Positions 3,773 through 52,439 of a DNA stretch of 64,000 nucleotides are shown here, piece by piece. A model generated the notes under the pieces. The model did not search any database and was not told the origin of the DNA. It saw only the letters and a list, made by a program, of their open reading frames with translations. Source of the DNA: Candidatus Omnitrophota bacterium (GTDB lineage: Bacteria; Omnitrophota; Gorgyraeia; Aquiviventales; Aquiviventaceae); contig JACQWM010000007.1 of assembly GCA_016209275.1 (NCBI GenBank), positions 6,865 through 70,864 of the forward strand. Reading direction: 5' to 3'. Positions within the stretch are counted from its first letter, which is position 1. Each line of letters starts with the position of its first letter. A program made the translations under genes and the position numbers.

Positions 3773-4586
3773 AGCCGGTGTCTAGGAGTCGGGCGGGCCG
3801 CACGCGAGCGCTGGAGAGCAGGACCTCCTCAGCCATCTGGCCCATCAATACGCGCAGGGCAAATGACGGCACAGGAACGATGGTTGGACGCGACAGCACG
3901 CGTCCAAGCGTTTTCGTAAATTCTCGATTGGTCACGGGATTCGGCGCGACAAGATTCACCGGTCCCTGCAGGGTTTCACGCGTGAGCGCGTGGAGCATCC
4001 CTCCAAGGATGTCATCGAGAGCAATCCAGCTCATGTATTGGCGCCCTGAGCCGAGTACCCCGCCAAGACCACACTGAAAAGGCGGCAGCATCAGCTTGAG
4101 CGCTCCACCGACCGGGCTCAGCACCACACCGATTCGCACATGCACCACGCGGATCCCCCGGCGTCTCGCAGGATCGGCTGCGGCCTCCCACTGGCGGCAG
4201 ACTTCAGCCAAAAACCCCGAGCCCTGCGTGCTGTGCTCTTCCAATATCTCTTCACCACGATCACCATAAAAACCAATAGCTGAGGCCGTCACCAGAACCT
4301 TGGGAGGTTGAGACAGATGAGCCAACGCTTCACTCAGCCTGCGCGTTCCATGGGCTCGGCTGTCACGAATGCGCTGTTTCTTCTGCTCGGACCATCGGCC
4401 GATGATCGGCTCTCCGGCTAAATGGATGGCGCCTTCGACCCCTTCAAACCCCGAAACCTCAGGCGATCGGGGCACACGAACGACGGTATGCCCTTCAGCC
4501 GCCAGAGACGGGATGAGGGCAGATCCGATAAACCCTGTGGACCCTGAGACGGCGATTTTCATGTTGCAATATGGCAACGATACCAC
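3708..4586 (-). CDS. TIGR01777/YfcH-family NAD-dependent epimerase (DUF1731)
   Basis: GSTGFIGSALIP Rossmann motif and strong collinear similarity to E. coli YfcH (HLAGEPI...RW, LPPF..GLGG..GSGRQY.SWI). The likely start is MKIAVSG, 8 codons in. Confidence 0.82.
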   Translation of the reverse strand: MVSLPYCNMKIAVSGSTGFIGSALIPSLAAEGHTVVRVPRSPEVSGFEGVEGAIHLAGEPIIGRWSEQKKQRIRDSRAHGTRRLSEALAHLSQPPKVLVTASAIGFYGDRGEEILEEHSTQGSGFLAEVCRQWEAAADPARRRGIRVVHVRIGVVLSPVGGALKLMLPPFQCGLGGVLGSGRQYMSWIALDDILGGMLHALTRETLQGPVNLVAPNPVTNREFTKTLGRVLSRPTIVPVPSFALRVLMGQMAEEVLLSSARVRPARLLDTGYVFRYPTLEPALRHLFGKISS

Positions 4587-8016: not shown

Positions 8017-8091
8017 GCGACACATGACCCATGACTCACGACTCATGACTATTCTGGTTGAAGTCCAGGGTCATGTGTCGTGGGTCGCGAC
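8017..8091. repeat. CATGAC-heptamer imperfect inverted repeat between nuoG and nuoEF, copy 1
   Basis: gcgacacatgacccatgactcacgactcatgact ... gtcatgtgtcg. An 11-bp stem cgacacatgac/gtcatgtgtcg was verified. It shares the core gacacatgacccatgac with the element at 21035-21120. Confidence 0.55.
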
Positions 8092-16780: not shown

Positions 16781-16784
16781 ATCA

Positions 16785-16814
16785 ATATCAGATATCGAAT
16801 TCGATATCTGATAT
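16785..16814. repeat. 30-nt perfect palindrome ATATCAGATATCGAATTCGATATCTGATAT (GATATCAGATAT family, GAATTC-centre variant)
   Basis: Read directly. It lies between convergent stops of the ABC exporter (16780) and the aquaporin (16818), a position consistent with a bidirectional terminator hairpin. Confidence 0.85.
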
Positions 16815-16817
16815 CGC

Positions 16818-17498
16818 CTAGCGTTTGACGAAAAAGACGTTCGCGGACAACCAAGACGCAGCCAGGCCGCCGAGGATCGGGCCGAGCCAGTAGACCACAT
16901 GCCGATGGTCAAGCGCGCCGCCGAGGAGCGCTGGGCCGAAGGCCCGCGCAGGATTCATGGCCGCCCCGGTGACCGGGCCGCCGAGGAGCATACCACACGC
17001 CAGCACGGCGCCGATCCCCCACCCGGCCGCCGCGGACCCGCCGCCTTGGGAGTTGCCCGCCGCGCCGAAAACGGCGAGCACGAGGAAAAACGTCAAGACC
17101 GCCTCAATCACCAGCGCTTGGCCCACCGTCACCGCGGTGATCGATGGCGCGCCGAGGCGCGCGGCGCGCCACACCTCGCTCGGCAGCAACAGCCGAAGCA
17201 CGAGCGCGGCACTCGCCGCCCCCGCGAGCTGGGAACACACGTACGCCGTCGCCGTCTGACGATCGGTGCGATTGACGCTGAGCATCGCCACGGTCACGGC
17301 GGGGTTGAAATGCCCGCCTGAGACGCGCCCGAGGGCTGCGATCATGGCTCCGAAGACGGCGCCATGCGCGACCGCAATCCCTAACACCCCCAGCGCCCCG
17401 CCGCTCCAATGATTCATGCACACGGCCCCCGCCCCGATGAACACCAGCGCAAATGTTCCGACCCCTTCCGCGATGACCGCAGCGCTCGCGCTCATCAC
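16818..17498 (-). CDS. aquaporin/MIP-family channel
   Basis: Two NPA boxes (GGHFNPAVT, NPARAFGP) and six TM helices. Confidence 0.85.
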   Translation of the reverse strand: MMSASAAVIAEGVGTFALVFIGAGAVCMNHWSGGALGVLGIAVAHGAVFGAMIAALGRVSGGHFNPAVTVAMLSVNRTDRQTATAYVCSQLAGAASAALVLRLLLPSEVWRAARLGAPSITAVTVGQALVIEAVLTFFLVLAVFGAAGNSQGGGSAAAGWGIGAVLACGMLLGGPVTGAAMNPARAFGPALLGGALDHRHVVYWLGPILGGLAASWLSANVFFVKR

Positions 17499-21034: not shown

Positions 21035-21120
21035 GACCCATGACACATGACCCATGACACATGACCAAACGAAACATCTGTTGTCGTGTGTCGTGAGTCA
21101 TAGGTCGTGTGTTATGTGTC
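21035..21120. repeat. CATGAC-heptamer imperfect inverted repeat, copy 2 (moeZ 5' region)
   Basis: Left arm gacccatgacacatgacccatgacacatgacc and right arm gtcgtgtgtcgtgagtcataggtcgtgtgttatgtgtc are about 75% reverse-complementary. Same core as the 8017-8091 element. Confidence 0.55.
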
Positions 21121-33560: not shown

Positions 33561-33890
33561 GGAGTTTTAAGCCCTGTTAAGGGGCATTACGTGAAGTATA
33601 CCTGACGGAGGCAGCGCGAAACAATGCAACAGCAAGATGGGCCAACGGTTAGAACGGTTAGAGCGTCGCGGCCCAGCGGAGAAACCGCAGGAGGATCGTG
33701 GGGTGGCGGATCACAAACGCGGCGAAGCGGGCGGCGGTGATGTCCTCGGCATGGAGCAGCCGGCCCTGCTCATCCAGCACGCCATACGTCTCCAGGCGCC
33801 AGCGCAGCAGCGGGGAGCGCCAGGGAGTGAGGACGTACGGCCAGCTCAGGCGAATGGCGACAAGAAGCATACGAAACCACAGCATAAAAA

Positions 33891-34020
33891 TTACCAATTA
33901 CCAAGCACCAATGACCAAACAATCACCAATTTTCCAATGACCAAATCACCAAACGTTTGGTTATTGGTCATTCAGTCATTGGTCATGGTTTGGTAATTGG
34001 AATTTGGTTATTGGTTATTT
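33891..34020. repeat. CCAA-heptamer inverted-array element (~130 bp imperfect palindrome), copy A
   Basis: Left arm ttaCCAAttaCCAAgcaCCAAtgaCCAAacaatcaCCAAttttCCAAtgaCCAAatcaCCAAacg is mirrored by tTTGGttaTTGGtcattcagtcaTTGGtcatggtTTGGtaaTTGGaatTTGGttaTTGGtta, centred on aaacg|tttgg. About 80% identical to copy B. Confidence 0.75.
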
Positions 34021-34557
34021 TGTTAACAATTTGGTGGCAGCCAAAGCAGCGTCGTAGTTCGGATGGGACGTCACTTCCGGCACGTACTCGACGTAACGCA
34101 CGGTCCCGCTGGCGTCGACCAAGAAGATCGCCCGGCTCAACAGGCGCAGTTCTTTGATGAGCGCGCCATAGGCGGCGCCGAATGACGCATCGCGGTGGTC
34201 CGACGCCGTCATGACGCGACTGATGCCGGCCGCCCCGCACCACCGCTTTTGGGCAAAGGGCAGATCCATGCTGATGGTCACAATCGCCACGTTCGGCAGC
34301 TTGGCCGCTTCTTCGTTGAACCGCCGCGTCTGCGCATCGCACACCGGCGTATCCAGCGAGGGCACCACGCTAATCAAGAGGGGCTTGCCTCTGAACTGCC
34401 CCAGGGTGATGGGCGAGAGATCCTGCCCAAGGAGTTGAAACTCCGGCGCCTTGCCGCCAACGGTGATTTCTGGCCCAAGCAGGGTGAGAGGACCTCCTTT
34501 AAAGGTCACAACACCTCGGCGTTCCTTCCCTAATGCGGTTGCAGTAGCAGTGGCCAT
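34015..34557 (-). CDS. tpx: thiol peroxidase (atypical 2-Cys peroxiredoxin, Tpx)
   Basis: VTFKGGPLTLLG N-terminus and the peroxidatic Cys in SLDTPVCD. Confidence 0.8.
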   Translation of the reverse strand: MATATATALGKERRGVVTFKGGPLTLLGPEITVGGKAPEFQLLGQDLSPITLGQFRGKPLLISVVPSLDTPVCDAQTRRFNEEAAKLPNVAIVTISMDLPFAQKRWCGAAGISRVMTASDHRDASFGAAYGALIKELRLLSRAIFLVDASGTVRYVEYVPEVTSHPNYDAALAATKLLTK

Positions 34558-36337: not shown

Positions 36338-36644
36338 CCGGGTTGGAGGTGGGGCCGGACTTCGTCAGCGGCAGATATTCAGGATGGCGTTTCAGATAGG
36401 CGCCTGAGATATACGAACACGAAGGAATCACCCTGAGTGCGCCGGTTTTCGCATACTCAAAGGCGGCTTTGCACAGCTTCTCAGCGATGCCCTGGCCCCG
36501 AAACACCTCGGGCACGTAGGTGTGATAGAGGTCAAGGTCGTTGCCGGTGCGTCGGTACATCACGCAGGCTTCGTAGCCTTCCATGGTGACACAGAAACGG
36601 CTTCCCCCGTGATCGTGTCGCACCTCGACGGATGGCTCGCTCAT
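36324..36644 (-). CDS. small GNAT-fold N-acetyltransferase (YjdJ-like)
   Basis: 106-aa minimal acetyltransferase domain (…RGQGIAEKLCKAAFEYA…). Confidence 0.55.
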   Translation of the reverse strand: MSEPSVEVRHDHGGSRFCVTMEGYEACVMYRRTGNDLDLYHTYVPEVFRGQGIAEKLCKAAFEYAKTGALRVIPSCSYISGAYLKRHPEYLPLTKSGPTSNPVVSG

Positions 36645-38265
36645 GCTCGTGATCCATTATAATAGAAGGATGGACGCTGTGGAATACCTTCTCGAGGAAA
36701 TTGCGCGCACGCTGCCGGAGAATCGCACCGCCCTTCGGAAGCTCAAAACCGCTGTGGCCTCACAAACGCGCAGGGCGGCCCTCATCCGGAATGACGCGCT
36801 GCTCAGACTCTACCGCCGGCAAGTCGAGCATGGCCAGCGCGCGTCCAATGAGCGGCTCGAGCAGATCTTAACACTCAACGGCATCCGCTCGCAGTCCGGG
36901 ATTGCCACCGTGACCGTGATCACCGAGCCGTACGCCTGCCCTGGCCGCTGCGTGTACTGCCCCACCGAGGCGCGAGCGCCCAAAAGCTACCTCACCAATG
37001 AGCCGGCCGTCATGCGCGCCCTGCGCCATGACTATGATCCGTACCGGCAAGTCACGAGCCGCTTGGAAGCGCTTGAGGAAACCGGCCATGCCACCGAGAA
37101 GATCGAACTCATCATCAAAGGCGGCACGTGGTCGTTTTATCCTCAGGCGTATCAACAGGAATTCATCAAGCGGTGCTTTGATGCCGCCAACACCCTATCG
37201 TCCCCGACACTTGAAGAAGCCCAGCGCGTGAATGAGACCGCGCAGCATCGAATGATTGGCGTGACGATTGAGACGCGGCCGGATTACATCGACGACGCAG
37301 AACTCCGACGATTGCGAAGACTTGGAGTGACGCGGGTGGAATTAGGCGTGCAGAGTCTTGAGGATTCCGTGCTGCGACTCATCGTGCGCGACCACGGAAC
37401 CATCGAAATCCGCCACGCCACGCGACGACTGAAAGATGCCGGGTTTAAAGTGGCGTATCACCTCATGCCGAATCTTCCGGGAGCGACACCAGAGAGCGAT
37501 CTTCAGACGGCGCGTCGGCTCGTTGATGATCCAGCCTACCGGCCGGATGCGATGAAAATCTACCCCTGCGTCGTCATCGACACGGCCGAGCTGTATCAGT
37601 GGTGGCGGCAGGGGCGCTATGCGCCGTATGACGATGAGACGCTCATTGAGCTGCTCATCGCGATCAAACAGCTTGTTCCGCCGTATCTGCGGATTGAACG
37701 AGTGATCCGCGACATTCCCTCCACGTCCATTCGCGCCGGGTGCCTGATCACGAATCTTCGGGAAACAACGCAGCGTCGGATGCGCGCGCAAGAACTGCGC
37801 TGCCGCTGCATCCGCTGCCGGCAAGTGCGCGGAGATACGGAAGGACCGTTTACGCTCATCCGCCGCGATTATGAGGCATCCGATGGAACGGAAATGTTCT
37901 TGAGTTTCGAGGACGTCGCGCGCGATCAGCTCGCTTCACTGCTGCGCCTGCGCATCCCGGGACGGTTGATAGCAGATATCCCGCGACGCGGGATATCTGC
38001 TATCGCCTTGTTTCCGGCACTCGAGGATGCCGCGCTGATCCGAGAGTTGCATTCCTACGGCCACCATGTGCCCCTGCATCGGCGCCGCCAAGGGGCGGTG
38101 CAGCACCGAGGGCTCGGCCAGCAGTTGCTTGAGGAGGCGGAACGCATTGCGCGGGAGGAATTCGGGAAACGCCGGATGGCCGTGATTGCCGGTGTCGGGG
38201 TGCGCGACTACTACCGGCGCTTCGGTTACGAGCTCGAAGACACCTATATGGTCAAAACGCTGTAA
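36643..38265 (+). CDS. elp3: Elp3-like radical SAM / GNAT tRNA-modification acetyltransferase
   Basis: Radical-SAM motif CPGRCVYCP, a central ELP3 domain and a C-terminal GNAT domain. 540 aa. Confidence 0.8.
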   Translation: MLVIHYNRRMDAVEYLLEEIARTLPENRTALRKLKTAVASQTRRAALIRNDALLRLYRRQVEHGQRASNERLEQILTLNGIRSQSGIATVTVITEPYACPGRCVYCPTEARAPKSYLTNEPAVMRALRHDYDPYRQVTSRLEALEETGHATEKIELIIKGGTWSFYPQAYQQEFIKRCFDAANTLSSPTLEEAQRVNETAQHRMIGVTIETRPDYIDDAELRRLRRLGVTRVELGVQSLEDSVLRLIVRDHGTIEIRHATRRLKDAGFKVAYHLMPNLPGATPESDLQTARRLVDDPAYRPDAMKIYPCVVIDTAELYQWWRQGRYAPYDDETLIELLIAIKQLVPPYLRIERVIRDIPSTSIRAGCLITNLRETTQRRMRAQELRCRCIRCRQVRGDTEGPFTLIRRDYEASDGTEMFLSFEDVARDQLASLLRLRIPGRLIADIPRRGISAIALFPALEDAALIRELHSYGHHVPLHRRRQGAVQHRGLGQQLLEEAERIAREEFGKRRMAVIAGVGVRDYYRRFGYELEDTYMVKTL

Positions 38266-38267
38266 GA

Positions 38268-38301
38268 CGATATCAGATATCGAATTCGATATCTGATATC
38301 G
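38268..38301. repeat. 34-nt perfect palindrome CGATATCAGATATCGAATTCGATATCTGATATCG (GATATCAGATAT family)
   Basis: Read directly. It lies between convergent stops of elp3 (38265) and the ferredoxin gene (38305). Confidence 0.88.
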
Positions 38302-38649: not shown

Positions 38650-38874
38650 TTAGAGCACCAGGTGGGAATCGGTGTCGCGCACACCGCTGAGCTGGCGGAT
38701 GGTGGAGAGAATTCCGGCGAACTCCTCGTACGGCTCGGCATCGACAAACGCGATCATGTCATGCTCGCCGGTCACCTGATAGACCATCTTGATGCCGGCG
38801 AGCTTGGCGACGGCATGCTCGACTTCCTTTTCGTGGCCGGGCACCACATCGATCATGATGAAGGCTTTCGGCAT
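38650..38874 (-). CDS. stand-alone Lrp/AsnC ligand-binding (RAM) domain protein
   Basis: 74 aa with the βαββαβ RAM-domain sequence pattern (IMIDVVPGHEKEV..., VTGEHDMIAFVDA) and no HTH. Confidence 0.5.
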   Translation of the reverse strand: MPKAFIMIDVVPGHEKEVEHAVAKLAGIKMVYQVTGEHDMIAFVDAEPYEEFAGILSTIRQLSGVRDTDSHLVL

Positions 38875-38935
38875 CGTTTCCTCTATACTAGGATATTGTA
38901 GCCTGAGTCGTCCGCCGACTCAAGCAAATCCGCTG

Positions 38936-39919
38936 ATGGCGCTCCACGCTGAAATGATACGCCGCGCGGCGCGCGGCGCGCTCCTCGCACTCATGACGGG
39001 GTGCGCCATGGCGCGCCCGATGCTTGTTGGTGTTCCGTTGACTGACTTGCGCGCGCACCCGCGCACCGTCGCACAGCCGTCGGTCCACGACCCCGAGGAA
39101 GAAACGCAATTGTTCTACGGCGAACCGGTCCGCGTGCTTGAGGAACACAACGGATGGGTGCGCGTCGAAGCGATGGAGCAAGCGGAATTTAGCCATGCCA
39201 CACGGTGGCAAGGGTACCCCGGGTGGCTGCCGAAGAGCGATCTGATGGCGGCCCATGACCAGCAGCCGCCGTCGATCGTCGTGGCTGACCCGTGGGTCGC
39301 GGCATGGACCAATGCCTATCTCACGGATGCGGCTTCCCTGCAATTCCCCATGGGCACGCTGCTCTCCGCCATCGAGATCGGCCATCAGGTGTGGCGCATT
39401 GAATTGCCCGATGGCGAGTTTGTCTGGATCCCGCATGGCGCGGCTCGCCCTCTGGAGCAGGTGGCCGCGCTGCCCCATGCCGAGAAACGGCGCATGATCC
39501 TGCACAGCGCCCAGCGGCTCATCGGCGAACCGTACTACTGGGGCGGCCGCGCAGCGCGCAGCAACGCCCGGGCGAATCGCGCCGCCGGCTTCGATTGCTC
39601 CGGGGTGGTGAACGTGGCGTATCGGACGGTCGGCCTCGCGATTCCGCGCGATGCGCACGAGCAGTTCCTGCGGGCAAAAAAGATCTCCACACTCCAGCCG
39701 GCTGACCTCATTTTTCTTTCGGCGCCGAATGATCCTTCACGCATCGTGCATGTGATGCTCTACGCGGGTGATGGCGACCTCATTGAAGCGCCCCAGACCG
39801 GGAACACGGTCCGTCGCATCAGCCTGCGTGAACGTCTTGGCCGAACGATCGATCAACTGACACCCGGCACCGTCATCGATGGACAAACGGTGTTCTTTGG
39901 GTCGTACCTACCTGCATGA
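38936..39919 (+). CDS. NlpC/P60 (C40) cell-wall peptidase lipoprotein with N-terminal SH3-like region
   Basis: ATG at 38936 verified. Lipobox LMTGC. C-terminal C40 catalytic motifs (GFDCSGVVN...H). Confidence 0.75.
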   Translation: MALHAEMIRRAARGALLALMTGCAMARPMLVGVPLTDLRAHPRTVAQPSVHDPEEETQLFYGEPVRVLEEHNGWVRVEAMEQAEFSHATRWQGYPGWLPKSDLMAAHDQQPPSIVVADPWVAAWTNAYLTDAASLQFPMGTLLSAIEIGHQVWRIELPDGEFVWIPHGAARPLEQVAALPHAEKRRMILHSAQRLIGEPYYWGGRAARSNARANRAAGFDCSGVVNVAYRTVGLAIPRDAHEQFLRAKKISTLQPADLIFLSAPNDPSRIVHVMLYAGDGDLIEAPQTGNTVRRISLRERLGRTIDQLTPGTVIDGQTVFFGSYLPA

Positions 39920-39941
39920 TCGCCAACCAAAACGAATTTTC

Positions 39942-39987
39942 GATTGACGATTTATGATTGACGATTAATTATCGACAATCGTCAATC
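39942..39987. promoter_or_regulatory. three copies of an 11-mer GATTGACGATT (two direct, one inverted) in the 5' region of the DUF819 gene
   Basis: cGATTGACGATTtatGATTGACGATTaattatcgacAATCGTCAATCgaa, 17-62 nt upstream of the ATG at 40004. Candidate operator array, read from sequence only. Confidence 0.4.
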
Positions 39988-40003
39988 GAACATCGTAAAT
40001 CCC

Positions 40004-41137
40004 ATGGCAATAGTGACCCTCCTTGGTTTGGTGGGAATAGTCCTCATCCTTCAGCGCCATCCCGCCACACATCGCCTCTTCAAGTGGCTGCCGACTCCGC
40101 TGTGGTGCTATGCCCTGCCGATGATGGCGACGACGCTCGGATGGCTGCCACGGCACCATCCTTCCTATCCGCTCTTGACCACGCTCGTGTTGCCGTTTGC
40201 GCTGGGATTGCTGCTGCTAGGCGTTGATGTCCCGGCGATCGCGCGCGTGGGCTGGCGGGCGGTCGCGGCGACGCTCCTCGGCAGTGTGAGTATCGTCCTG
40301 GGTGCGCCGCTGATGGGATGGCTCCTGCGCGCGCATCTGCCGGCTGGCGCATGGACTGGGGTGGGGACGCTCGCGGCGACGTGGACCGGCGGCAGCATGA
40401 ACCTCTTGGCGGTGCGCACGATTGTCGGCACGCCTGAGGCGATCTTCACGGTCCTCATCATCGTCGATGCGCTCATCGCCTACAGCTGGATGATCGTGCT
40501 GATGGCCGCCAGCGGTCTTCAGCAGCCGCTGGATCGTTGGTTGCGGGCCGCGCAGGCCACGTCCTCGGAGTCCCTCCCTCTCGCCGGGCCTCCCTCTCGG
40601 ATGTGGCCTGCACCTCCCGCGGCAATCATCGTCGCAATCGGGCTGACAACATCCGCGATTCTGGTTGGACGGATGCTCCCCACGACTCAGATGATTAGCT
40701 CCGCCAGCGGCTGGGTGGTATTGCTGGTGACGACGTTTGCGCTGGGCGCCTCATTCATTGCACCGATTCGACGGTTAGGCCCCGCAGCGACCTCGGTGGG
40801 CATGCCGTGTTTGTATCTAGTACTCGCCGGCATGGGAGCGCAAGCCAGCCTCTTGGCGCTGTGGGCGGCGCCGATCTGGGTCGCGTTTGGCGTCGGTGTC
40901 GCGATGTTTCACGGGGTGGTCATGCTGCTGGGCGGATGGCTGCTGCGGATTCCGCTGGGCGTGCTGGCAACGGCCAGCCAAGCGAACTTAGGGGGAGTGG
41001 CGTCCACCCCGATCGTGGGCGCGGTGTATCGTCAGGAATTGGCCGCCGTGGGGTTGTTGCTGGCGGTGGGGCTCAATGGGATCGGCACGTATCTCGGCCT
41101 CTGCTCCGCCTGGCTCGCCCGCCTTCTTCTAAGGTAG
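40004..41137 (+). CDS. polytopic membrane protein (DUF819-like)
   Basis: About 10 TM helices. The N-terminus (LFKWLPTPLWCYALPMM) resembles the DUF819 family. Low certainty on the family. Confidence 0.45.
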   Translation: MAIVTLLGLVGIVLILQRHPATHRLFKWLPTPLWCYALPMMATTLGWLPRHHPSYPLLTTLVLPFALGLLLLGVDVPAIARVGWRAVAATLLGSVSIVLGAPLMGWLLRAHLPAGAWTGVGTLAATWTGGSMNLLAVRTIVGTPEAIFTVLIIVDALIAYSWMIVLMAASGLQQPLDRWLRAAQATSSESLPLAGPPSRMWPAPPAAIIVAIGLTTSAILVGRMLPTTQMISSASGWVVLLVTTFALGASFIAPIRRLGPAATSVGMPCLYLVLAGMGAQASLLALWAAPIWVAFGVGVAMFHGVVMLLGGWLLRIPLGVLATASQANLGGVASTPIVGAVYRQELAAVGLLLAVGLNGIGTYLGLCSAWLARLLLR

Positions 41138-42680: not shown

Positions 42681-45281
42681 TCACAGCATTGTTCCGCCGC
42701 GAAGGGCGATGTCAACGAGCAGCGCGACAATCGCCAGCGGCAGCCACCAGTGGAACATCGGCGCCGTCGTGGTCACCGGAGCGGTCAGCGGGACAAAGGC
42801 GCGATCCGGCGCATTGTAGACGCCGTGGGTTCCGCCGGAAAGCGAGCGCAGCAAGCGTTCTTCGGGTGGCTGGCCGGTGATTTCGCCCTCGGCCGTCGGC
42901 GCCCCGACGCGGATCCAGCGCTTTGTTTCCACCGAAATCTGCCGCTGCTCCGCCGCCGCCTCAGGGGAGGCGATGGTCGAATCAAGCCGCAGCTGATGCC
43001 AGCCTCCAGGCACCTGCTCCAAGGAGGCCTGCCAGCGCCAAGCCCCATGTTGAACGAGGGGGAGAGGGATTTCGCCCGAGCCGTCGCCGGCAAGCAACCG
43101 CGCCTTAGGATCGGTCAGCGCGCCTTCAATGACCAGGTGAGGCGCCGATCCGGTATCATCAACCCACGTGAAGAGTTCCTCGCTCATCCGCGGCCGCATC
43201 GCCCACCGCGCGATGTGCGCCCATGTCGCCTCATAGCCGGGCCAGCGGACCCACTCGGGCGACCAGCGACTGTGCGCATCCGACAGAAACGACACCACCC
43301 GCCCTTTGCCTCGCATCCATCGCGCCAGCAGCGGATCGTCCCCCTTCGCCAAGGCTTCGGGGGACAGGTCCCCCTCGCCGCCGTTGATCGTCAGATCCAC
43401 GCGGGCCTCGGGCTTGGCCGTCGCGGTCAGATAGCCGCGCAGCGCCGGCCACTCCGGAACCTCGGCGAACCAATCCGAGGAGGGCGCGCGCTGCGGACGG
43501 AAATTCCCCTCGGCAAACGGCAGGCGGTCGAGCATCTGCTGGGTATCCCGCGCGAGCAGATGCGGCAGCTCCTCCAGCGAATTCATCTGATAAAACCTGC
43601 CACCGGTGCTGCGGGAGAGGTACTGCAAGTAGTCGGTGTTGATGAACGCCGAGCCGATGCCGATGGTGCTGATCGTGATGCGCTCCTTCTGAAACGCCTG
43701 CAGCATCGTGGCGTAGGACTGCCGCAACTCCGCAAACGGCGTGTTGCCGTCGGAGAGAAGAATGATGTGCTTGATGGTCGCCCCGGTCGCCTCCAGGCGA
43801 GTGGCCGCCGCAGCCAACGCCGGGTACACATCGGTGCCGCCGGTCGCGCGCAGCTTCACCAAGGTGTCCACGAGCGACGCGGTCACCCCTCCGGCCGGCT
43901 GCACCTCGGCCACCACATACGGTTTCGTATCGAACGCCAGCATCCCCACGAGGTCCTCCGGGGAGAGCTGCTTGATGAGGGCCACCGCCGCGCGCTTCGT
44001 GGCGGCGATGCGCGGGCCGAACATGGATTGCGATCGGTCGATCAAGAGGATGACGCAGATGCGCCGCTTGGCTTCACGCAGGCCTTTGGGATCAAAGCGC
44101 ACCGGCAGCAGCTCATCGAGGGGCGAGGCGGTGGCGATTTCATGCGCGAGATCGCCGCCTAAGCCCACCATCAGCAGCCCGCCGCCGAGCTCCACAGAGC
44201 GCCGCAGCTCATCGACTTGGGCCGGGCTCAGTGCGCTCTTGGGCAGATTGTCCAGGAGGACCGCATCGGCGTTGCGCAGCCGATCGGCCGAAAGATCCGC
44301 GGGGCGCATAACGCTGACATCCATCTGCCGTTGCTTCAAGACGGCGGCCAGCGGCGATGGCGCCGAGGGATGCTCGGTGACTAGGATGAGCTGCGGCGGC
44401 CCCTCGATTTCCGTATAGGCCTGCCGCTGCTCGTCCACCCCATCGGATGGAATCCGCAGATGCACGGTCAGCGCCATGGTGCCGCGCTGAATCGCCGGAA
44501 CGGTCACCGTCGCCACCTGCCAGCCGCTCCGCAGGCGCATCGCCTGCTGTTTCACGGTGATACCCTGCAGGGCGATCGCCGCCTGGCCGTCTTTCATCGT
44601 CTGCGCCGCATTGAAGATGACCAGCCGCACCGGGATCGCCCCCCCGCGCTGAACGCTCGGCGGCACGAGCAGATCATCCCACACCGTCTTCGTCTCATTG
44701 AACACCGGAACCGTCACGGGAAACACGCTCAGGCCGCGCCCACGGAGTGCCGCCACGACCATCGCAGTGCTCCCCATCGTTTCGTGCCCATCGCTGAAGA
44801 GCACGAGGCTCGTCCGCCCGGGCGTGCTAGATGCTGCCAGCGCAGACAGCAAGGCCCCCTCAAGATCGGTGCGATCATCCCCCACCGAGGCCTGGCGGAG
44901 CAGCCGCTCAATGACTGAGGGATCGGTCAGCGCCTCGGTGCCCCAGTCCGCGACGGAGGCGGTATCCCGGCCGAACGCCATGACGGCGCGGGAGAGCCGC
45001 GAGGGACGGATCGCTTCCAGCGACGCCAGCCGCCGGGCGATCCACGCGCGTTGGCGCGGATCGATGCTGGCGGATTGGTCCACCAGGTACAGGATCTGGC
45101 GGGGGGCCTCATGGCTCCACCGGCGAGGAAACGCCCACAGCGCTGCGCACACCATGGCGATGGCGAGCAGCCGAGCGCCCACGGCGATGGCTTTGCGGGC
45201 ACCCGCCAGCGGAATCTTCTGACTGAGCCACAGCACCAATCCCATGAGTGCGAGCGAGATCGCCAGATGAGAAAAGTTCAT
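42681..45281 (-). CDS. membrane-anchored double-VWA-domain protein (BatB-like)
   Basis: N-terminal two-TM BatA-type anchor and two MIDAS motifs (DQSAS and DRSQS). 866 aa. ATGA overlap with the upstream BatA-like gene. Confidence 0.75.
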   Translation of the reverse strand: MNFSHLAISLALMGLVLWLSQKIPLAGARKAIAVGARLLAIAMVCAALWAFPRRWSHEAPRQILYLVDQSASIDPRQRAWIARRLASLEAIRPSRLSRAVMAFGRDTASVADWGTEALTDPSVIERLLRQASVGDDRTDLEGALLSALAASSTPGRTSLVLFSDGHETMGSTAMVVAALRGRGLSVFPVTVPVFNETKTVWDDLLVPPSVQRGGAIPVRLVIFNAAQTMKDGQAAIALQGITVKQQAMRLRSGWQVATVTVPAIQRGTMALTVHLRIPSDGVDEQRQAYTEIEGPPQLILVTEHPSAPSPLAAVLKQRQMDVSVMRPADLSADRLRNADAVLLDNLPKSALSPAQVDELRRSVELGGGLLMVGLGGDLAHEIATASPLDELLPVRFDPKGLREAKRRICVILLIDRSQSMFGPRIAATKRAAVALIKQLSPEDLVGMLAFDTKPYVVAEVQPAGGVTASLVDTLVKLRATGGTDVYPALAAAATRLEATGATIKHIILLSDGNTPFAELRQSYATMLQAFQKERITISTIGIGSAFINTDYLQYLSRSTGGRFYQMNSLEELPHLLARDTQQMLDRLPFAEGNFRPQRAPSSDWFAEVPEWPALRGYLTATAKPEARVDLTINGGEGDLSPEALAKGDDPLLARWMRGKGRVVSFLSDAHSRWSPEWVRWPGYEATWAHIARWAMRPRMSEELFTWVDDTGSAPHLVIEGALTDPKARLLAGDGSGEIPLPLVQHGAWRWQASLEQVPGGWHQLRLDSTIASPEAAAEQRQISVETKRWIRVGAPTAEGEITGQPPEERLLRSLSGGTHGVYNAPDRAFVPLTAPVTTTAPMFHWWLPLAIVALLVDIALRGGTML

Positions 45282-46975
45282 GTGCTGTGTATTTCGGATG
45301 GTGGATGGTGGATGGTGGATTGCGCTTTACTGGAATCCGCAATCGAAAATCGAAAATCCAAAATTCGTTGTGATGTTCGCCTCGCATACAGCCACCATTC
45401 GATCACGAGCAGCGCTAAGACGGCCAGCAAGAGCCATGGGGCCAGCGGAAGCATCGTCGGCTGCGCCGCCGCCGACGGCGGACGCTCTTCAGCCAGCGGC
45501 CGCCATGTCGAGGTCCGGTCCATCAGATTCGACTCGAGCGCGTTGAAGAGCCCTGTGGCGTGCGCGGCGTCTCCCATCAGCCACCGCAGGCTGTTGAACA
45601 CGACGACAATGGCCGTCGTGGTGTCGTGGCTGATCGAGGGATCAAAGCGCAGGGTCACGCGGCGAACCCCCTGGGGCGCATCGGCCAATACCACGGGAAT
45701 TTTCCGGCCGTTGCGCACCGCGGAGATGACGGCAACAGCGCTGGTGTCGGCCGTGGCTGCCGGATTCAACGCCACTGACACGACATCGACCGGCGCCACA
45801 TACGCGCCCAGGGGATGGTCATTGGCCACCAGCCAATGCACAGGAGTGGACTGACGTGGCGCGTTGGCTGAGAGGTCGAATCGCAGCACGGCGGACGGTT
45901 GCCAACCGCTCATCACCTCGCGGTCGGTGATCAGGACGAATGGCGCATCGGCCGCAGGCGGTTCGGTGCTCCATTGGAGCGCTGCGCATGCGGTGAGCCA
46001 CTCCCTGAGGCCGCGCTGCAGTTCCGGGGAGGCCACGCGCAAGACCACGGGCAAGGTCGCGTGCTGCGGGATGGTCAGATGCGCCGCATTATCGAGGCTG
46101 AGCGCATCGGGCTGGGCTTGCAGTTGCACCTCAATGTCCCCGGCGGCGTTCGCGGGCAGGCTCAGCGCTTCCACGCGGCGCGCCCCGGCCTCCAGCCGAA
46201 GGCTGGATTGCGCCAATGGCGCGCCGCCCTGCAGGACGCGCACCGTCACCGTTGAGGGTTCGGAAGAAAAATTGTGGATCGTCGCCGCCAGGTGCGCCCC
46301 GTCCGCCGCGCACAGCGGCCCCCGCGCTTCGACACCTGCCAGCGCGACATTGGCCAGTGTTTCTCCCACGCCGAGCCATTGCACGCGGGCCGGCAAACCT
46401 TCAGGCCGCGGCTCATCGGTTGCGACGATGATCTCATCAGGCGGCTTCGGCAGCATCGCGCTTCCCAGGCGCACCGCGGAGGCCAAATTGCCGCCCAGGG
46501 CCGCTGTGCGCTGCTCATCGAGGGCGCGATGGATCGTGGCCGCATCGCTTCTCGGATGCGCCACGGCCGGCTGCAGCGGCGCTGTCGCCACCAGCATCAC
46601 CTCATCAGCCGCAGACCGCTCCATTAATCGCCGCCGAAGCGCGGTGCGAGCGCGATCGAATGCAGCGCTGCCGCTGCGCCGCGCGGCCATGCTGGCCGAT
46701 GTATCGAGAATCGCCAGGACGGTGCGTCCGCCTGGATGGCGAAGGGCTGGCCGAGCCAGGGCGAGGGCTAAGAGGATCGCGCCGGCGAGCTGCATCCAGA
46801 AAAGCGGGTTGACCACCAGATGCGTCCGTCGACGGGCAGCGCGGCGCAGCAGGTGCTCAAACGGGATCAGGCTGGGAATCTGAAGGCGCCGCCGGCTGGC
46901 CGCCAGCCGCCACAACCAGAGCACCACCGGCACGCTGAGCAATCCGAGAAAACCTAGAGGAGAAAGAAATGACAT
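45278..46975 (-). CDS. BatA-like VWA-domain protein (aerotolerance-regulator N-terminal domain)
   Basis: N-terminus MSFLSPLGFLGLLSVPVVLWLW...LVVNPLFWMQL fits the BatA N-terminal TM motif. MIDAS DTSAS. 565 aa. Confidence 0.75.
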   Translation of the reverse strand: MSFLSPLGFLGLLSVPVVLWLWRLAASRRRLQIPSLIPFEHLLRRAARRRTHLVVNPLFWMQLAGAILLALALARPALRHPGGRTVLAILDTSASMAARRSGSAAFDRARTALRRRLMERSAADEVMLVATAPLQPAVAHPRSDAATIHRALDEQRTAALGGNLASAVRLGSAMLPKPPDEIIVATDEPRPEGLPARVQWLGVGETLANVALAGVEARGPLCAADGAHLAATIHNFSSEPSTVTVRVLQGGAPLAQSSLRLEAGARRVEALSLPANAAGDIEVQLQAQPDALSLDNAAHLTIPQHATLPVVLRVASPELQRGLREWLTACAALQWSTEPPAADAPFVLITDREVMSGWQPSAVLRFDLSANAPRQSTPVHWLVANDHPLGAYVAPVDVVSVALNPAATADTSAVAVISAVRNGRKIPVVLADAPQGVRRVTLRFDPSISHDTTTAIVVVFNSLRWLMGDAAHATGLFNALESNLMDRTSTWRPLAEERPPSAAAQPTMLPLAPWLLLAVLALLVIEWWLYARRTSQRILDFRFSIADSSKAQSTIHHPPSEIHST

Positions 46976-46985
46976 CTATGGAAAT

Positions 46986-47116
46986 TATCAATAACCAAGC
47001 ACCAATAACCAAACAATGACCAATGTTCCAATGACCGAATTACCAAACGATGTGGTCATTGGTGATTCAGTCATTGGGAATTGTTTGGTGATTGGAATTT
47101 GGTAATTGGTTATTGG
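46986..47116. repeat. CCAA-heptamer inverted-array element, copy B (inside the Bat-like operon)
   Basis: ataaCCAAgcaCCAAtaaCCAAacaatgaCCAAtgttCCAAtgaccgaattaCCAAacg | atgtggtcaTTGGtgattcagtcaTTGGgaattgtTTGGtgaTTGGaatTTGGtaaTTGGttaTTGG. It lies between the GT2/ligase stop (47067) and the batA-like start (46975). Confidence 0.75.
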
Positions 47117-48959
47117 CAGCTAATCCGTGAATTGAACCGAGCCACAGCCAGAAGCCCAGATTGGTGTGCGACGAATAGAGCGCTGATTCAAACACGCCGA
47201 CCACCAGAAACGCCACCACCCCGCAGCCTAAGGCGGCGGCCAGCAGCGCCGTCTCTCGATCGCTCGAACGGAGCAGCCGCCGAAACGCCCGGCCTGTCTG
47301 CGCGATGATGCCGGCAAACGCGATCAACCCGATCGCTCCTAATTCGGCAGCCAGATGCAGATAATGGTTATGCGCGTACGCCGAATGGATGGGATCCCAG
47401 GACAACTTATACCGGTCATAATTCTTAATGAACGTGTTGACGCCCACACCGATGACCGGATGCGCGGCGAACATCCGCCAGGCGGCGGCCCAGATTTGCG
47501 GCCGCTCCGGCTGAATCAGCGCATCCCACCACGACGGTTGGCTCGCGGCCCAGGCGCGCACAGGAGCCGGCAACAACAGCAGCAGAAGGACTCCGGCCGC
47601 CGCCAGTCCGGCTAACAGAGGCCAGGCTCGCCGCACGACACAGAACACCAGCAGGCTCGCGGCCACCGCCGTGACCCCGGGACGCGAGTAGCTCAACACC
47701 AGCGCGCACGATAGCAGAGCCACGACCAACCACCGCCACCATCGACGCACCGCATCCCCCGCCGTGATGGCCGCCACCACGCAGAGGGGAAAGACGCTGG
47801 CCGCAAAGATGCCGAAATCATTCGCGTGGCCGAACGTCGCGGTCAGCCGCGGCAGGCCCCCCGGGGCATGGCCGGCCGCGCGGCCCCGCAGCGGATCAAC
47901 ACCGAAGGCGAGTTGCAGCAGCCCATCGATGGAGACGATCGCCGCGGACAGCACGACGGCGGATAACACGGCGCGCAGGCGGGACGGCCGGTTGAGCGTC
48001 TCGGCCGCCACCCAACAGATCAGGACCGCTTGCGCGATTTTGAAGAGTCCTTGCACGCTCGCGCGAAGCGCCACCGAATGCCACATCGACACCACCCCGG
48101 CCGCGAACCACACGCAGAACCATACGTTGACCGCGAGCTGCGGAGGCCGCAGGCTGCGCGTTCGCAGCTTGCCCAGCACCCAGGAGGTGACGGCGATTCC
48201 CACCGCAAGGTTCTTCAGCGCAGGGGCGAGCGGCCAAAACAGCACGGCCAGCCAGATCGAGGCAAACGTCACCTCATCAGCGGTGAGGCGCAGCCAGCGC
48301 TTGCGCAGCAACAGCCGCACGCAGCCCCACCCATCGCGCAGAGGTGCGAGCTTGCTGCGCCCGATGCGGGAGGCATAGCCGATGGGGATTTCCTCCGCGC
48401 GCAGGTTCGCCACGGCGAACGCTTCGACTTTGATCTCGTGCGAAAACGGAATGCCGGAATCTGCGAGATGCAATTGCTTGAGCGCCGAGGCGCGGATCGC
48501 CCACATGCCGGAGAGCGAATCGCGCAGCGACAAGCCGAAGCACCAATTCGCCAGCAGGGTGAGGACCCCATTGCCCACGCGGCTGACCCACGACATGGCC
48601 CGCGGCTGCTGCAGCGGGAAGCGCGAGCCGTTGACGAAATCCAGCTGCCGCCGGGCCAGCGTCTGCACCAGCGGCTCGATGGCGGAGAGCGGATACGTGC
48701 CGTCGCCGTCAAGCTTCACGATGACGTCGCCCGTCGCTTCCCGCAACCCGCGGCGGCAGGCCTCCCCGTAGCCGGGCCGCGTCTCGGCCGCCACCCGAAC
48801 GCCCGCAGCGCTGGCGACGGCGGCGGTCTCATCGGTGGAGCCGTTATCGACAACCACCACCTCATCGACGCTGCGGGGCATCTTCGGCAGCATCTGCCGC
48901 AAGCCATCGGCCTCATTCAGGCACGGAATAATCACGCTCACCCGCAGGCCATCAATCAT
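47067..48959 (-). CDS. fusion of a family-2 glycosyltransferase (DPM1-like) and an O-antigen-ligase/Wzy-like polytopic domain
   Basis: N-terminal GT2 motifs (VSVIIPCLNE, VVVDNGSTD, DGDG). C-terminal ~400 aa with ≥10 TM helices typical of O-antigen ligase-type proteins. 4-nt overlap with DUF58. Confidence 0.65.
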   Translation of the reverse strand: MIDGLRVSVIIPCLNEADGLRQMLPKMPRSVDEVVVVDNGSTDETAAVASAAGVRVAAETRPGYGEACRRGLREATGDVIVKLDGDGTYPLSAIEPLVQTLARRQLDFVNGSRFPLQQPRAMSWVSRVGNGVLTLLANWCFGLSLRDSLSGMWAIRASALKQLHLADSGIPFSHEIKVEAFAVANLRAEEIPIGYASRIGRSKLAPLRDGWGCVRLLLRKRWLRLTADEVTFASIWLAVLFWPLAPALKNLAVGIAVTSWVLGKLRTRSLRPPQLAVNVWFCVWFAAGVVSMWHSVALRASVQGLFKIAQAVLICWVAAETLNRPSRLRAVLSAVVLSAAIVSIDGLLQLAFGVDPLRGRAAGHAPGGLPRLTATFGHANDFGIFAASVFPLCVVAAITAGDAVRRWWRWLVVALLSCALVLSYSRPGVTAVAASLLVFCVVRRAWPLLAGLAAAGVLLLLLLPAPVRAWAASQPSWWDALIQPERPQIWAAAWRMFAAHPVIGVGVNTFIKNYDRYKLSWDPIHSAYAHNHYLHLAAELGAIGLIAFAGIIAQTGRAFRRLLRSSDRETALLAAALGCGVVAFLVVGVFESALYSSHTNLGFWLWLGSIHGLAANNQLPNSNHQTIPND

Positions 48960-50936: not shown

Positions 50937-52439
50937 TTATGGGTTGCTCCGACGGTGGAGCTGGTCGAAGATCGGTTGATATTCCGGCGGGACGGATTGG
51001 CGCGTGGTCGCACGCTCCTCCAGAGGCTGATCAGAGAGCTGGGCGTCTTCCGGCTGCGCTTTTGGCGCGTCTTTCGCAACCGCGCCGGAGGGCGTGCCCG
51101 TACCGCCGCTGGCTCGTCCCTGCTTTGTCGGCGCCGTATCCGTCTGCAACTGGATCGGCACCGGTTTGCCGGTTGAAGGATCAATCGGTGTGGCTGCGCC
51201 GTAGAGATTTGGGTCGGTGCCCTGGCCGGCGTTTGGCATCTGTTGCTCTTGGTCAAGTTTGGCTTGCAATTGTTCAAGCTGCCCGGAAACTTGCTGCAGC
51301 AAGGCGTGGATGTCCGCTTTCATGTCGGCGGCGCCGGCCTGCTCAGAGGTCGTGCCTGGCTGCTGTCCTGCTTCGCCCGAGCCTTGGTGGGGCTTCGCAG
51401 CAGCGAGCCCTTGAGAGGGTTGCTTGCCCTGCTGGCCTGGCTTGGTCTTGCTGCCGGCAGCCTGTTGCGCGGCTTGCCGCTGCCCCTGTTGCTGACCCTG
51501 TTGTTGACCCTGCTGCTGAGCTGACTGCTGCCCTTGCTGTTGGCCTTGTGTTTGCTGCTGGCCGGCTTGTTGTTGAGCGCCTTTTCCCTGCTGCTGGGTG
51601 CTTTGTTGTGATGAGTTTCCGGAATCCTTTTTGTTGTTGGACTGATTTTGATTTTGGTTTTGGTTTTGGTTTTGGTTTTGATTCTGGCTCTGATTTTGGT
51701 TTTGGTTCTGATTCTGCGCCCCCTGGTTTCCTGCGCAGTCACACGATGATTGTTGTTGCCCGCCACCCGACATGCTCATGCCGGCCCGCCCCGGCTCACT
51801 GTTCTGGTGTTGGCGGGCCGGGGGCGGCGCCCCCCCCTGCTGCATGTCGGAAGCACTCTTCGAGGATGACGGCGCTTCCGGCGCCTTCGGCTTCTGCTCG
51901 TCGGGCTGTGGTTGCTGAGGTGAAGCTCCGGGTGGTACGGCAGGAGGTTTCGATGCTTGGGTGAATTGACGCAACACCGTTTTCGGCGCCGGCCAGATGA
52001 GGAGCAGAATCAGCAGCGCTGAAAGCGCGGTGGCCCATCCATCAACAGGACGCGGAAGGCGGATTCGATCGGTGCGCACGCGCTGCGCGAGGTCTTCGAG
52101 CAGCATCGGGTAGAGGGCGGGCGGCTCAGGGGCGGCGGAGAATTGTTCGGCGGTTAGCAAGCGCTGCTGCAATCCGAGGGTGGCGTCAAGCCACTGCGCG
52201 CCGGCCCGCGAGGCGCGCCATCGCCGCCGGCTCCGCCACGCCAGCCCGAGGGCGAGGAGGACCAGCAGCAGCGCCGCCGCGGCGACGCTGACCGAGAGCC
52301 GAACACCGGCAAGCCGCAGCCGCCAGGCGAGGGCCATTGCCATCGCCCCGCCCAACCCGGCCAGCACGCCGGTGTTGGCGAACAGCGCTTGGCGATACCG
52401 GGCAGCGAAGCGGCGCGTCTGCCTGAGGGGATCACTCAT
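50937..52439 (-). CDS. two-TM membrane protein with a long Q/N/G-rich low-complexity domain (QNQNQN, QQQGQQQ)
   Basis: Two N-terminal hydrophobic helices, a third TM around 150, then >200 aa of Gln/Asn/Gly/Ser/Pro low complexity including (QN)n encoded by hexanucleotide repeats. It is the first gene of the Bat-like block, 17 nt upstream of moxR. Confidence 0.5.
   Translation of the reverse strand: MSDPLRQTRRFAARYRQALFANTGVLAGLGGAMAMALAWRLRLAGVRLSVSVAAAALLLVLLALGLAWRSRRRWRASRAGAQWLDATLGLQQRLLTAEQFSAAPEPPALYPMLLEDLAQRVRTDRIRLPRPVDGWATALSALLILLLIWPAPKTVLRQFTQASKPPAVPPGASPQQPQPDEQKPKAPEAPSSSKSASDMQQGGAPPPARQHQNSEPGRAGMSMSGGGQQQSSCDCAGNQGAQNQNQNQNQSQNQNQNQNQNQNQNQSNNKKDSGNSSQQSTQQQGKGAQQQAGQQQTQGQQQGQQSAQQQGQQQGQQQGQRQAAQQAAGSKTKPGQQGKQPSQGLAAAKPHQGSGEAGQQPGTTSEQAGAADMKADIHALLQQVSGQLEQLQAKLDQEQQMPNAGQGTDPNLYGAATPIDPSTGKPVPIQLQTDTAPTKQGRASGGTGTPSGAVAKDAPKAQPEDAQLSDQPLEERATTRQSVPPEYQPIFDQLHRRSNP

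Follow-up and report, generated by a model that had tools for sequence, protein, structure and literature searches.

Arrays of heptanucleotide repeats have been known since 1990, the year in which Mazel et al. reportedly gave TTGGTCA as the unit of STRR2. In cyanobacteria, the stretch separating hupS from hupL holds STRR hairpins composed of 7-bp repeats, and these have been proposed to stabilise the transcript or to couple translation (PMC2670836). The heptamers GGGAATC in Xanthomonas and GGGGA(C/T)T in Nostoc are likewise intergenic, and some of their arrays form inverted pairs (Rehm et al. 2015, PMC4692102), with 70-75 convergent, stem-loop-capable array pairs present in each Xanthomonas genome (PMC4692102). 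Direct repeats of the heptamer TAACTGA occur in Beggiatoaceae, Cyanobacteria, and Bacteroidetes, and a translational role has been proposed for these as well (MacGregor 2015, PMC4679880).

Two kinds of dispersed repeat provide further precedents. REP and BIME sequences are transcribed as parts of mRNAs, and the REPs of E. coli affect both the stability of the mRNA and translation of the gene that precedes them. REP elements are 20-40 nt long, begin with a head of the GTAG or CGTC type, and depend on a link with RAYT transposases (PMC3733652). MITEs such as Correia, RUP, and Nezha are noncoding, dispersed elements of ~100-200 bp that have terminal inverted repeats, vary in presence or absence from one relative to another, and can supply adjacent ORFs with stop codons.

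Here we examine two elements, designated A and B, that reside in a 64-kb window (the whole stretch of DNA that was analysed) from an Omnitrophica MAG, and that we file as a heptanucleotide-repeat hairpin behaving as a dispersed REP/MITE-like repeat. Both the STRR sequences and the A/B family have 7-bp units, are intergenic within operons, and are capable of forming hairpins when inverted. The A/B unit TTGGT(C/T/A)A includes TTGGTCA, reportedly the STRR2 unit. However, STRR sequences are homogeneous local arrays of heterocystous cyanobacteria, whereas each Omnitrophica element is a separate ~135-bp entity in which the irregular units follow a set order, and which has been copied between loci. 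The G-rich heptamers of Xanthomonas and Nostoc have a different unit with G-quadruplex potential, which CCAA units lack, and they are not described as a conserved cross-phylum element. The TAACTGA repeats resemble the A/B family in being intergenic heptamers of distant phyla; they are found near start codons, and one orientation stops all reading frames. However, they form direct arrays of another unit, whereas A and B are inverted.

REP, BIME, and REPIN sequences share with the A/B family the character of high-copy intergenic imperfect palindromes located mostly at gene 3′ ends or in co-directional gaps, near stop codons. REP membership was nevertheless rejected for A and B, which are ~135 bp long, are built of heptamers, and have no GTAG or CGTC head. 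A and B match MITEs in all the features listed above, but no target-site duplication was found for them, nor, in an unsystematic look at the window, a cognate IS, and their inverted 7-nt array runs throughout the body rather than being confined to the termini. In addition, the span of several phyla observed for the A/B family is unusual for a MITE. To these precedents the present elements add a discrete, alignable ~135-bp palindromic family built of heptamers, a clean pair of filled and empty orthologous sites that documents insertion at a TAATG junction with translational coupling, a close link to the preceding stop codon on more than 100 environmental contigs, and evidence that the family crosses phylum boundaries.

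Elements A and B and the junctions they occupy

The boundaries of the elements were set by aligning A, B, and their reverse complements and by repeat finding (Table 1). The intervals given in a preliminary description of this DNA (33891-34020 and 46986-47116) proved essentially right, as did its account of inverted CCAA/TTGG heptamer arms. Both elements are composed of (T/A)NACCAA heptamers mirrored by TTGGTNA. Element A has eight CCAA cores in its left arm (33894 to 33949, in NNNCCAA units) and seven TTGG cores in its right arm (in TTGGNNN units), and element B has six exact and two degenerate CCAA cores on the left and seven TTGG cores on the right. The midpoint CCAAACG/TTTGG, described at first as common to both elements, is that of A; B is centred on CCAAACGATGTGG. 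The motif CCAATNACCAA, with at most one mismatch allowed, matches 20 times in the window compared to 2.55 expected matches and to 0 of 100 shuffles that reach this count, and 19 of the 20 matches fall within A and B. TRF reports a period of 7 in all four arms, and the two arms of A are 78% complementary to each other, those of B 74%. The outer ends AAWTWACCAAT and ATTGGTWATTT are complementary and hence qualify as terminal inverted repeats, a trivial property of an element that is palindromic throughout. The GC fraction of the 64-kb window is 0.617, as compared with 0.34 for A and 0.37 for B.

Table 1. Features of the window (positions counted from its first nucleotide) and tpx/orf75 junctions of relatives
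Feature	Position	Strand	Remarks
Element A	33887-34021	n/a	135-bp imperfect palindrome, 34% GC
Element B	46983-47116	n/a	134-bp copy, 37% GC
tpx (thiol peroxidase, AhpC-TSA/Redoxin)	34015-34557	-	TAA stop 34017-34015
orf75, conserved 75-aa gene	33658-33885	-	336 homologs, nearly all 75 aa
GT2/O-antigen-ligase (Wzy_C) fusion gene	47067-48959	-	ORF enters B
BatA/VWA gene	45278-46975	-	ATG 8 nt beyond end of B
Hairpin, CATGACN	8019-8095		One gene's stop and next gene's start inside arms
Hairpin, CATGACN	21035-21120		Downstream ORF start in one arm
Hairpin, CGATTGA	39941-39989		Most of an 84-nt co-directional gap
Hairpin, GGATGGT/AATCGAA	45296-45364		Makes C-terminal tail of BatA ORF
L246 (Omnitrophica GCA_016198915.1)	tpx/orf75 junction		AAG TAATG CTC, stop overlaps start
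L249, L250	tpx/orf75 junction		8-nt spacer
L247, L248	tpx/orf75 junction		72-nt spacer with different heptamer hairpin

A and B are copies of one dispersed repeat. They align on the same strand with 116 of 133 positions identical (87%, somewhat higher than the likeness of about 80% noted initially), and none of 600 pairs drawn at random from related metagenome elements scores as high as this alignment. For comparison, A is 79% identical to its own reverse complement, and most of its closest matches to unrelated elements of this kind have 78-82% identity, with lower alignment scores. The irregular units, which comprise an 11-nt unit and GCA and AAT spacers, occur in the same order in A and B, and the two elements have the same ends.

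All genes that flank A and B are on the minus strand. Read along the sense strand, the first heptamer of A has the TAA stop codon of tpx as its spacer, the ATG of orf75 begins 2 nt beyond the other end, and the 129-nt gap between these genes is wholly element A. The preliminary description thus placed A correctly next to tpx, while on the other side orf75 precedes the sensor kinase genes that had been taken as its neighbour. Syntenic gcvT-tpx-orf75-kinase loci of relatives permit the same junction to be compared (Table 1). It is empty in L246, L249, and L250 (CGC TAA GACGCCGC ATG in L249), and in the window it is filled (...AAA TAA|CCAAT...AATTTTT|ATG CTG). In L247 and L248, the first arm of the hairpin has four NNGGATT units (GCGGATT, TCGGATT, GTGGATT, and GCGGATT) followed by GAC, and the second arm has five mirror units that begin with AAT (AATCCGA, AATTCGA, AATTCGC, AATCCGC, and AATTTCG). 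Because tpx and orf75 overlap or are 8 nt apart in relatives, and because the 129 nt found in the window are all A, this element was inserted at a junction where the two genes of relatives are translationally coupled. On comparing the filled site with the empty sites of L246 and L249, we found no direct repeat of more than 1 nt that could represent a target-site duplication. The relatives are only ~70% identical in protein sequence, and therefore the insertion is not recent.

Element B lies between the GT2/ligase and batA-like genes as first described, with the correction that the GT2/Wzy_C ORF reads 49 nt into it. The 5′ arm of B, on the sense strand, supplies the last ~16 codons of this ORF (NNQLPNSNHQTIPND and a stop). 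In a C-terminal alignment, GT2/Wzy_C homologs finish at ...FWLWLGxLHGL plus short unrelated tails. Because the conserved part of the protein stops at the boundary of B, the last ~16 residues are encoded by the element, and its arms are not remnants of coding sequence, one of the outcomes that the preliminary description had named as refuting it. An origin of the elements as a coding remnant or pseudogene, for which the entry of this ORF into B might speak, is effectively refuted by these homolog C termini and by the 7-nt period, which is incompatible with coding; the stop codons in every frame of the sense-strand 5′ arm of A and the empty sites in relatives also count against it.

We infer solely from its homology to A that B, too, was inserted. 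The homologs found with accompanying DNA included no syntenic GT2/Wzy_C-BatA junction that might represent an empty site, and the flanks of B (GCC and CC) are uninformative with regard to target-site duplication. From the two loci it is evident that the elements donate or displace stop codons of their neighbours. In practice, they lengthen ORFs, as seen for the tail of GT2/Wzy_C, and they break assemblies, given that a Logan contig of the same organism ends inside B; they can also mislead gene callers.

RNA folding, one of the checks suggested in the preliminary description, predicts stabilities of -52.4 to -57.5 kcal/mol for either strand of A and B (z = -6.3 to -7.7), which none of 200 shuffles equals. 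However, permuting the units of the right arm leaves the stability of A and B unchanged (z about 0), so there is no register-specific pairing in these two elements, and pairing is largely a by-product of complementary cores. The same permutation applied to 99 elements lowers stability only slightly (mean z -0.55). An RNAalifold consensus contains only 19 pairs, most of them invariant. When the mirrored structure is imposed on an alignment of 22 sequences, 79.7% of cells pair, compared to 78.8% in shuffles, and the covariation score is modest (0.111 vs 0.092, a value reached by 7 of 500 shuffles), with slid registers of this structure being clearly worse. Convincing covariation is seen at pair 36-125 (UA in nine sequences, CG in seven) and pair 22-138 (CG in nine, AU in six). 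This pattern fits upkeep of the palindrome at the DNA or the RNA level and is no proof of a selected RNA structure, which we do not claim because the register signal is absent from A and B and weak overall.

Several known categories of structured or repeated DNA were compared with the elements and do not fit them well. An intrinsic terminator would have a short GC-rich stem and a U tract, whereas the base of the A and B stems is AU-rich and no such site was called. An iteron-like array, one of the candidates in the preliminary description, is disfavoured: iterons are expected to be direct repeats of ~17-22 bp next to rep and to an AT-rich unwinding region, whereas the units of A and B are 7 nt long and inverted, with tpx, orf75, GT2/Wzy_C, and BatA as neighbours and no rep gene nearby. 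Integron attC sites, which are bounded by RYYYAAC and GTTRRRY core sites and belong to cassette arrays near intI, do not fit either, since the boundaries AAATTACCAAT and ATTGGTTATTT do not share GTTRRRY and the neighbours are conserved, syntenic housekeeping or operon genes.

Related elements in metagenomes and genomes

The search for further copies, also suggested in the preliminary description, showed that A and B are far from being the only two. A hairpin-type pattern scan of metagenome contigs yielded at least 120 loci on contigs with 30-70% GC, and nearly all of the loci listed are genuine CCAA>TTGG inverted arrays. Among these listed matches, 65% of successive cores are spaced 7 nt apart, with smaller classes at 11 nt (10%) and 14 nt (7%), and left-arm spacers are mostly TGA or TAA. 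The CCAA and TTGG cores are invariant, and the spacers vary. Twenty of the metagenome elements align with A and B over their full length and have the same order of irregular units: a GCA/GATA unit, an 11-nt CCAAAYAAT mirrored by ATTRTTTGG, a GGAAT unit, and GAAAT...ATTTC ends. This order recurs in elements from other phyla.

An nhmmer profile built from A, B, and these 20 relatives (the 22-sequence alignment used above) scores 103 bits for A (E = 1.3e-29) and 99 bits for B, and it identifies 124 full-length copies, which are distributed over 110 metagenome contigs. On certain contigs nearly all intergenic gaps hold one, as exemplified by L202 (three in 3.9 kb) and L201 (three in 5.9 kb). Host taxa are hinted at by contig proteins that share 90% identity or more with named proteins at NCBI. 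By this measure, the nearest named organisms are Omnitrophota for one contig (L155), Deltaproteobacteria, Desulfobacterales, or Thermodesulfobacteriota for four (L149, L139, L129, and L202), Verrucomicrobiota for one (L238), and Candidatus Staskawiczbacteria of the CPR for one (L167). The A/B family is widespread, is found in several phyla, and is apparently unnamed. A phage origin was rejected, as a viral contig collection gave only seven matches.

Placement of the 124 copies was assessed with a crude ORF picker, and the figures are therefore approximate: 80 copies have callable genes on both flanks, 43 are without a callable gene on one side, and only one is inside an ORF. Around the 80 callable copies, genes are co-directional in 62 cases (78%), convergent in 11, and divergent in 7. 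The upstream stop codon is a median of 8 nt from the element in the 62 co-directional cases, and in 38 of them this stop falls within the 5′ arm or precedes the element by no more than 15 nt. In the same cases, the distance from the element to the next start has a median of 27 nt and a tail that reaches kilobases. The low counts inside ORFs and in divergent gaps, together with the closeness to stops, correspond to the extragenic, 3′-biased placement of REP-type sequences. The weak polarity of the element does not follow the direction of the genes (28 vs 35), in agreement with what a symmetric hairpin would show.

A separate scan of species-representative genomes was conducted with a single-arm pattern. 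Among the matches listed, most are unidirectional (TTGGTNA)n arrays of filamentous cyanobacteria, including (TTGGTCA)n arrays in Nostoc, Fischerella, Microcoleus, and others, and additional hosts are Planctomycetota, Bacteroidota, Chloroflexota, Methylomirabilota, Omnitrophota, and gammaproteobacteria. These listed matches comprise far more single arrays (135) than inverted pairs (15).

Possible function in operons and rival explanations

We tentatively favour, with a probability of about 0.45, the reading that A and B are copied, co-transcribed palindromes that act, if they act at all, as stop-proximal intercistronic RNA hairpins influencing stability or processing as well as coupling. A noncoding repeat would have been copied, by whatever mechanism, into very tight stop/start junctions between co-directional genes, a location from which it follows that the element would be transcribed within a polycistronic mRNA. 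The RNA of either strand would carry a C-rich, G-poor CCAA arm with stop codons at its 5′ side and a complementary UUGG arm at its 3′ side, and in cells the two arms are predicted to form about 60 pairs and so close a long, imperfect hairpin. The 5′ foot of this hairpin would adjoin or contain the upstream stop, and the next start would be 2-8 nt past its 3′ foot. In the manner of REP/BIME sequences, and of the proposal made for STRR hairpins, such a hairpin might shield the upstream transcript from 3′ exonucleases or offer a processing site, and downstream initiation may require that ribosomes completing the upstream gene open the stem, which would amount to translational coupling. For A, whose stop is at the foot of the stem, terminating ribosomes would open the base of the stem beside the orf75 start. 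For B, whose stop is 49 nt into the 5′ arm, they would open most of the stem beside the BatA start.

In favour of this stop-proximal hairpin reading are the copy relationship of A and B, the insertion of A, the homolog C termini at B, the stable folds of both strands, the intergenic and stop-proximal placement of the family, the lack of orientation bias, and the published proposal for STRR hairpins. It also draws support from a habit of the lineage, in which hairpins of other heptamers occur at gene junctions, one of them at the tpx/orf75 junction of L247. Against it count the pairing that is not register-specific, the modest covariation, and the lack of a canonical terminator signature. In addition, because the tpx and orf75 genes of relatives are already coupled by TAATG, the insertion may be merely tolerated rather than useful, and the loose distance between element and start codon across the family means that coupling cannot be a general role. 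If the elements modulate termination, coupling, or mRNA stability, then operon expression would be affected in many uncultivated lineages.

Some of the same observations can be accommodated by a selfish MITE or an IS200/IS605-type hairpin element that is mobilised in trans, has no function, and is tolerated only at intergenic junctions, which we judge to be somewhat unlikely. An element of this kind would explain presence or absence at the orthologous tpx/orf75 site, dispersed copies that are dense on some contigs, an AT-rich sequence in a GC-rich host, the lack of orientation bias, and the assembly break inside B, and its occurrence in several phyla suggests horizontal spread. The dispersed-repeat core of the MITE proposal in the preliminary description is accordingly retained, on the strength of the two copies, the insertion of A, and the further copies. 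MITE membership itself is not established, given that A shows no target-site duplication relative to the empty sites, that an unsystematic look at the window revealed no transposase or autonomous partner, and that copies which are 87% identical rather than nearly identical give no sign of recent bursts. The association with stop codons (median 8 nt) would furthermore require a specific insertion preference or strong purifying selection. It is quite unlikely that the elements instead arose in place as heptanucleotide microsatellites whose arrays grew by slippage and whose second arm was inverted by template switching, with the likeness of A and B due to gene conversion or a shared mutational bias. 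Heptameric SSRs are indeed over-represented in bacterial intergenic DNA, including the paired inverted arrays of Xanthomonas (PMC4692102), and many different heptamers form junction arrays or hairpins in the window and in relatives. Exact 7-nt spacing of 65% of cores and the excess of unidirectional arrays over pairs, both among the matches listed, also agree with slippage. However, independent slippage would not yield the identical order of irregular units and identical ends of A and B, or the recurrence of this order in other phyla.

An array of CCAA/TTGG sites at 7-nt spacing that is bound by a protein, either as DNA or as single-stranded RNA, seems improbable to us. Candidates would include a nucleoid protein, a regulator, or an RNA binder of the S1, CSP, or KH type. 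Invariant cores with variable spacers and pairing without a specific register speak for a binding array, as do the excess of CCAA-sense arrays and the closeness of unidirectional arrays to start codons (both among the matches listed, with crude ORF calls; figures below), and other arrays of heptamers have been suggested to have translational roles (PMC4679880; bioRxiv 10.1101/2022.06.06.494920). Against a sequence-specific reader stand the unrelated heptamers that adopt the same architecture within the lineage, and the CCAA arm would be sequestered when the hairpin forms. We regard as very unlikely a stand-alone structured noncoding RNA, such as an sRNA or a riboswitch-like RNA, or an intrinsic terminator. 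The very stable fold, the covariation at pairs 36-125 and 22-138, and the short A and U tracts that flank A, including U5 on the sense strand, are compatible with such an RNA, but the sense strand of B has only UUU and no longer U tract, the base of the stem is AU-rich, and simple promoter and terminator scans called no site on A or B. Rfam, the covariance-model search suggested in the preliminary description, gave no match at gathering score in the whole window, and on A and B, at E values up to 10, gave only sub-threshold matches to generic hairpins (miRNA precursors). With no Rfam family, modest covariation, no register-specific pairing, and no orientation bias, the structured RNA or sRNA proposed earlier is not supported.

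A broader reading, which we consider unlikely, is that the element is more than one further REP/MITE confined to a lineage and serves as discrete, conserved "punctuation", with its order of irregular units common to Omnitrophota, Desulfobacterota, Verrucomicrobiota, CPR, and other bacteria. Its closeness to stop codons would then be due to reading by a universal machine, such as the terminating ribosome, RNase III, or a conserved binder of single strands with a 7-nt footprint, and it might have spread horizontally among bacteria that co-occur in groundwater and sediment. If so, the element and the various additional heptamer hairpins found at junctions would indicate a general mechanism with a 7-nt period that organises operon junctions in these groups.

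Other heptamer hairpins and unidirectional arrays

The impression that this genome is rich in hairpin repeats was borne out by TRF combined with folding, which revealed further hairpins at gene junctions of the 64-kb window, each with arms of ~7-nt periodicity (Table 1). In a relative, L252, three junctions of the Bat operon (MoxR/DUF58, DUF58/BatA, and BatA/next gene) are likewise occupied by heptamer arrays or hairpins, built from still different units. This variety of units argues against a CCAA-specific reader as a general explanation and favours a generating process with a 7-nt period or a structural role that is independent of sequence.

Two further proposals were considered and set aside. 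A general polarity in which the C-rich arm comes first, for example to load Rho, fits the CCAA and CATGAC hairpins but is reversed in the heptamer hairpins h3, L247, and L252 as well as in the TTGG>CCAA pairs. Nor did these TTGG>CCAA pairs turn out to serve divergent genes.

The unidirectional arrays located at gene 5′ ends are in the CCAA sense in 56 cases and in the TTGG sense in 22 (among the matches listed, with crude ORF calls). The median distance to the start codon, again among the matches listed, is 15 nt for CCAA-sense arrays and 123 nt for TTGG-sense arrays, values that may be influenced by the fact that arrays rich in TGA and TAA truncate the upstream extension of ORFs and so may pull crude start calls toward the array. 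The association of CCAA-sense arrays with start codons echoes the translational roles proposed for other heptamer arrays (PMC4679880; bioRxiv 10.1101/2022.06.06.494920).

Heptamer arrays at gene junctions of relatives

The tpx/orf75 junction, which carries element A in our organism, is occupied in two relatives (L247 and L248) by a hairpin built from another heptamer (see table). In L247, this hairpin consists of four NNGGATT units, a GAC and five AAT-led mirror units. The presence of a different heptamer hairpin in L247 points to independent colonisation of this junction. In the MoxR-DUF58-BatA operon of a relative (L252), heptamer arrays or inverted pairs made of non-CCAA units are found at all junctions.

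Dense palindromes and an assembly break

On two metagenome contigs (L202 and L201), whose proteins cluster with those of Deltaproteobacteria, nearly every gene is followed by a full-length CCAA palindrome. A Logan contig from the same organism as the window (L251) begins within element B (L251 1-43), which is consistent with assemblers breaking at this repeat or palindrome.

Coordinates of heptamer arrays, palindromes and other repeats
Feature	Location	Coordinates	Remarks
CCAA palindromes	L202	101-249, 2258-2397, 3552-3693	3 in 3.9 kb
CCAA palindromes	L201	2199-2303, 3914-4068, 5722-5825	3 in 5.9 kb
72-nt non-CCAA heptamer hairpin	L247 (also L248)	3925-4000 (L247)	tpx/orf75 junction, as element A
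Arrays or inverted pairs	L252	2385-2502, 3460-3493, 5279-5419, 8067-8265	Units CAGTGGT/ACTGATN, TGCAGCC, ATTGCGA/GCAATCN, CAGTGAT/CTGGTCA
CATGACN/NGTCATG hairpins	Window	8019-8095, 21035-21120	Arms are ~7-nt periodic arrays; junctions of minus-strand genes
CGATTGA/TCAATCG heptamer hairpin	Window	39941-39989	37% GC
(GGATGGT)x3.6 + (AATCGAA)x3.4 arrays	Window	45296-45364	Within BatA ORF 3' end
Perfect palindromes (C)GATATCAGATATCGAATTCGATATCTGATATCG, two, near-identical	Window	16781-16816, 38268-38301	
(TTTTGG)x10 hexamer array	Window	51646-51707	TRF score 82; inside long minus-strand ORF 50937-52439

Unidirectional arrays near gene starts

Unidirectional (TNACCAA)n arrays also lie by gene starts, and they are strand-biased. 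Among the matches listed from the single-arm pattern scan of species-representative genomes (L003-L122), crude ORF calls give 56 arrays with CCAA in the sense orientation versus 22 with TTGG, at median distances to the start codon of 15 nt and 123 nt, respectively.

Other repeats in the window

The two CATGACN hairpins have folding energies of -48 and -56 kcal/mol. In the first, the upstream gene ends (stop at 8071) and the downstream gene begins (start at about 8039) within the arms. The CGATTGA hairpin occupies most of the 84-nt gap between two co-directional plus-strand ORFs (38789-39919 and 40004-41137). Because the BatA ORF contains the (GGATGGT)/(AATCGAA) arrays at its 3' end, the C-terminal tail of BatA (...ILDFRFSIADSS...STIHHPPSEIHST*) is encoded by heptamer repeats; the stop of this ORF is overlapped by the ATG of the next gene (at 45281). 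The hexamer array likewise lies within an ORF, and therefore a dipeptide-type repeat would be encoded.

The perfect palindromes look terminator-like, but carry no U tract. One takes up the 37 nt separating two convergent ORFs, 15014-16780 (+) and 16818-17498 (-), and the other is located directly 3' of the stop of ORF 36643-38265.
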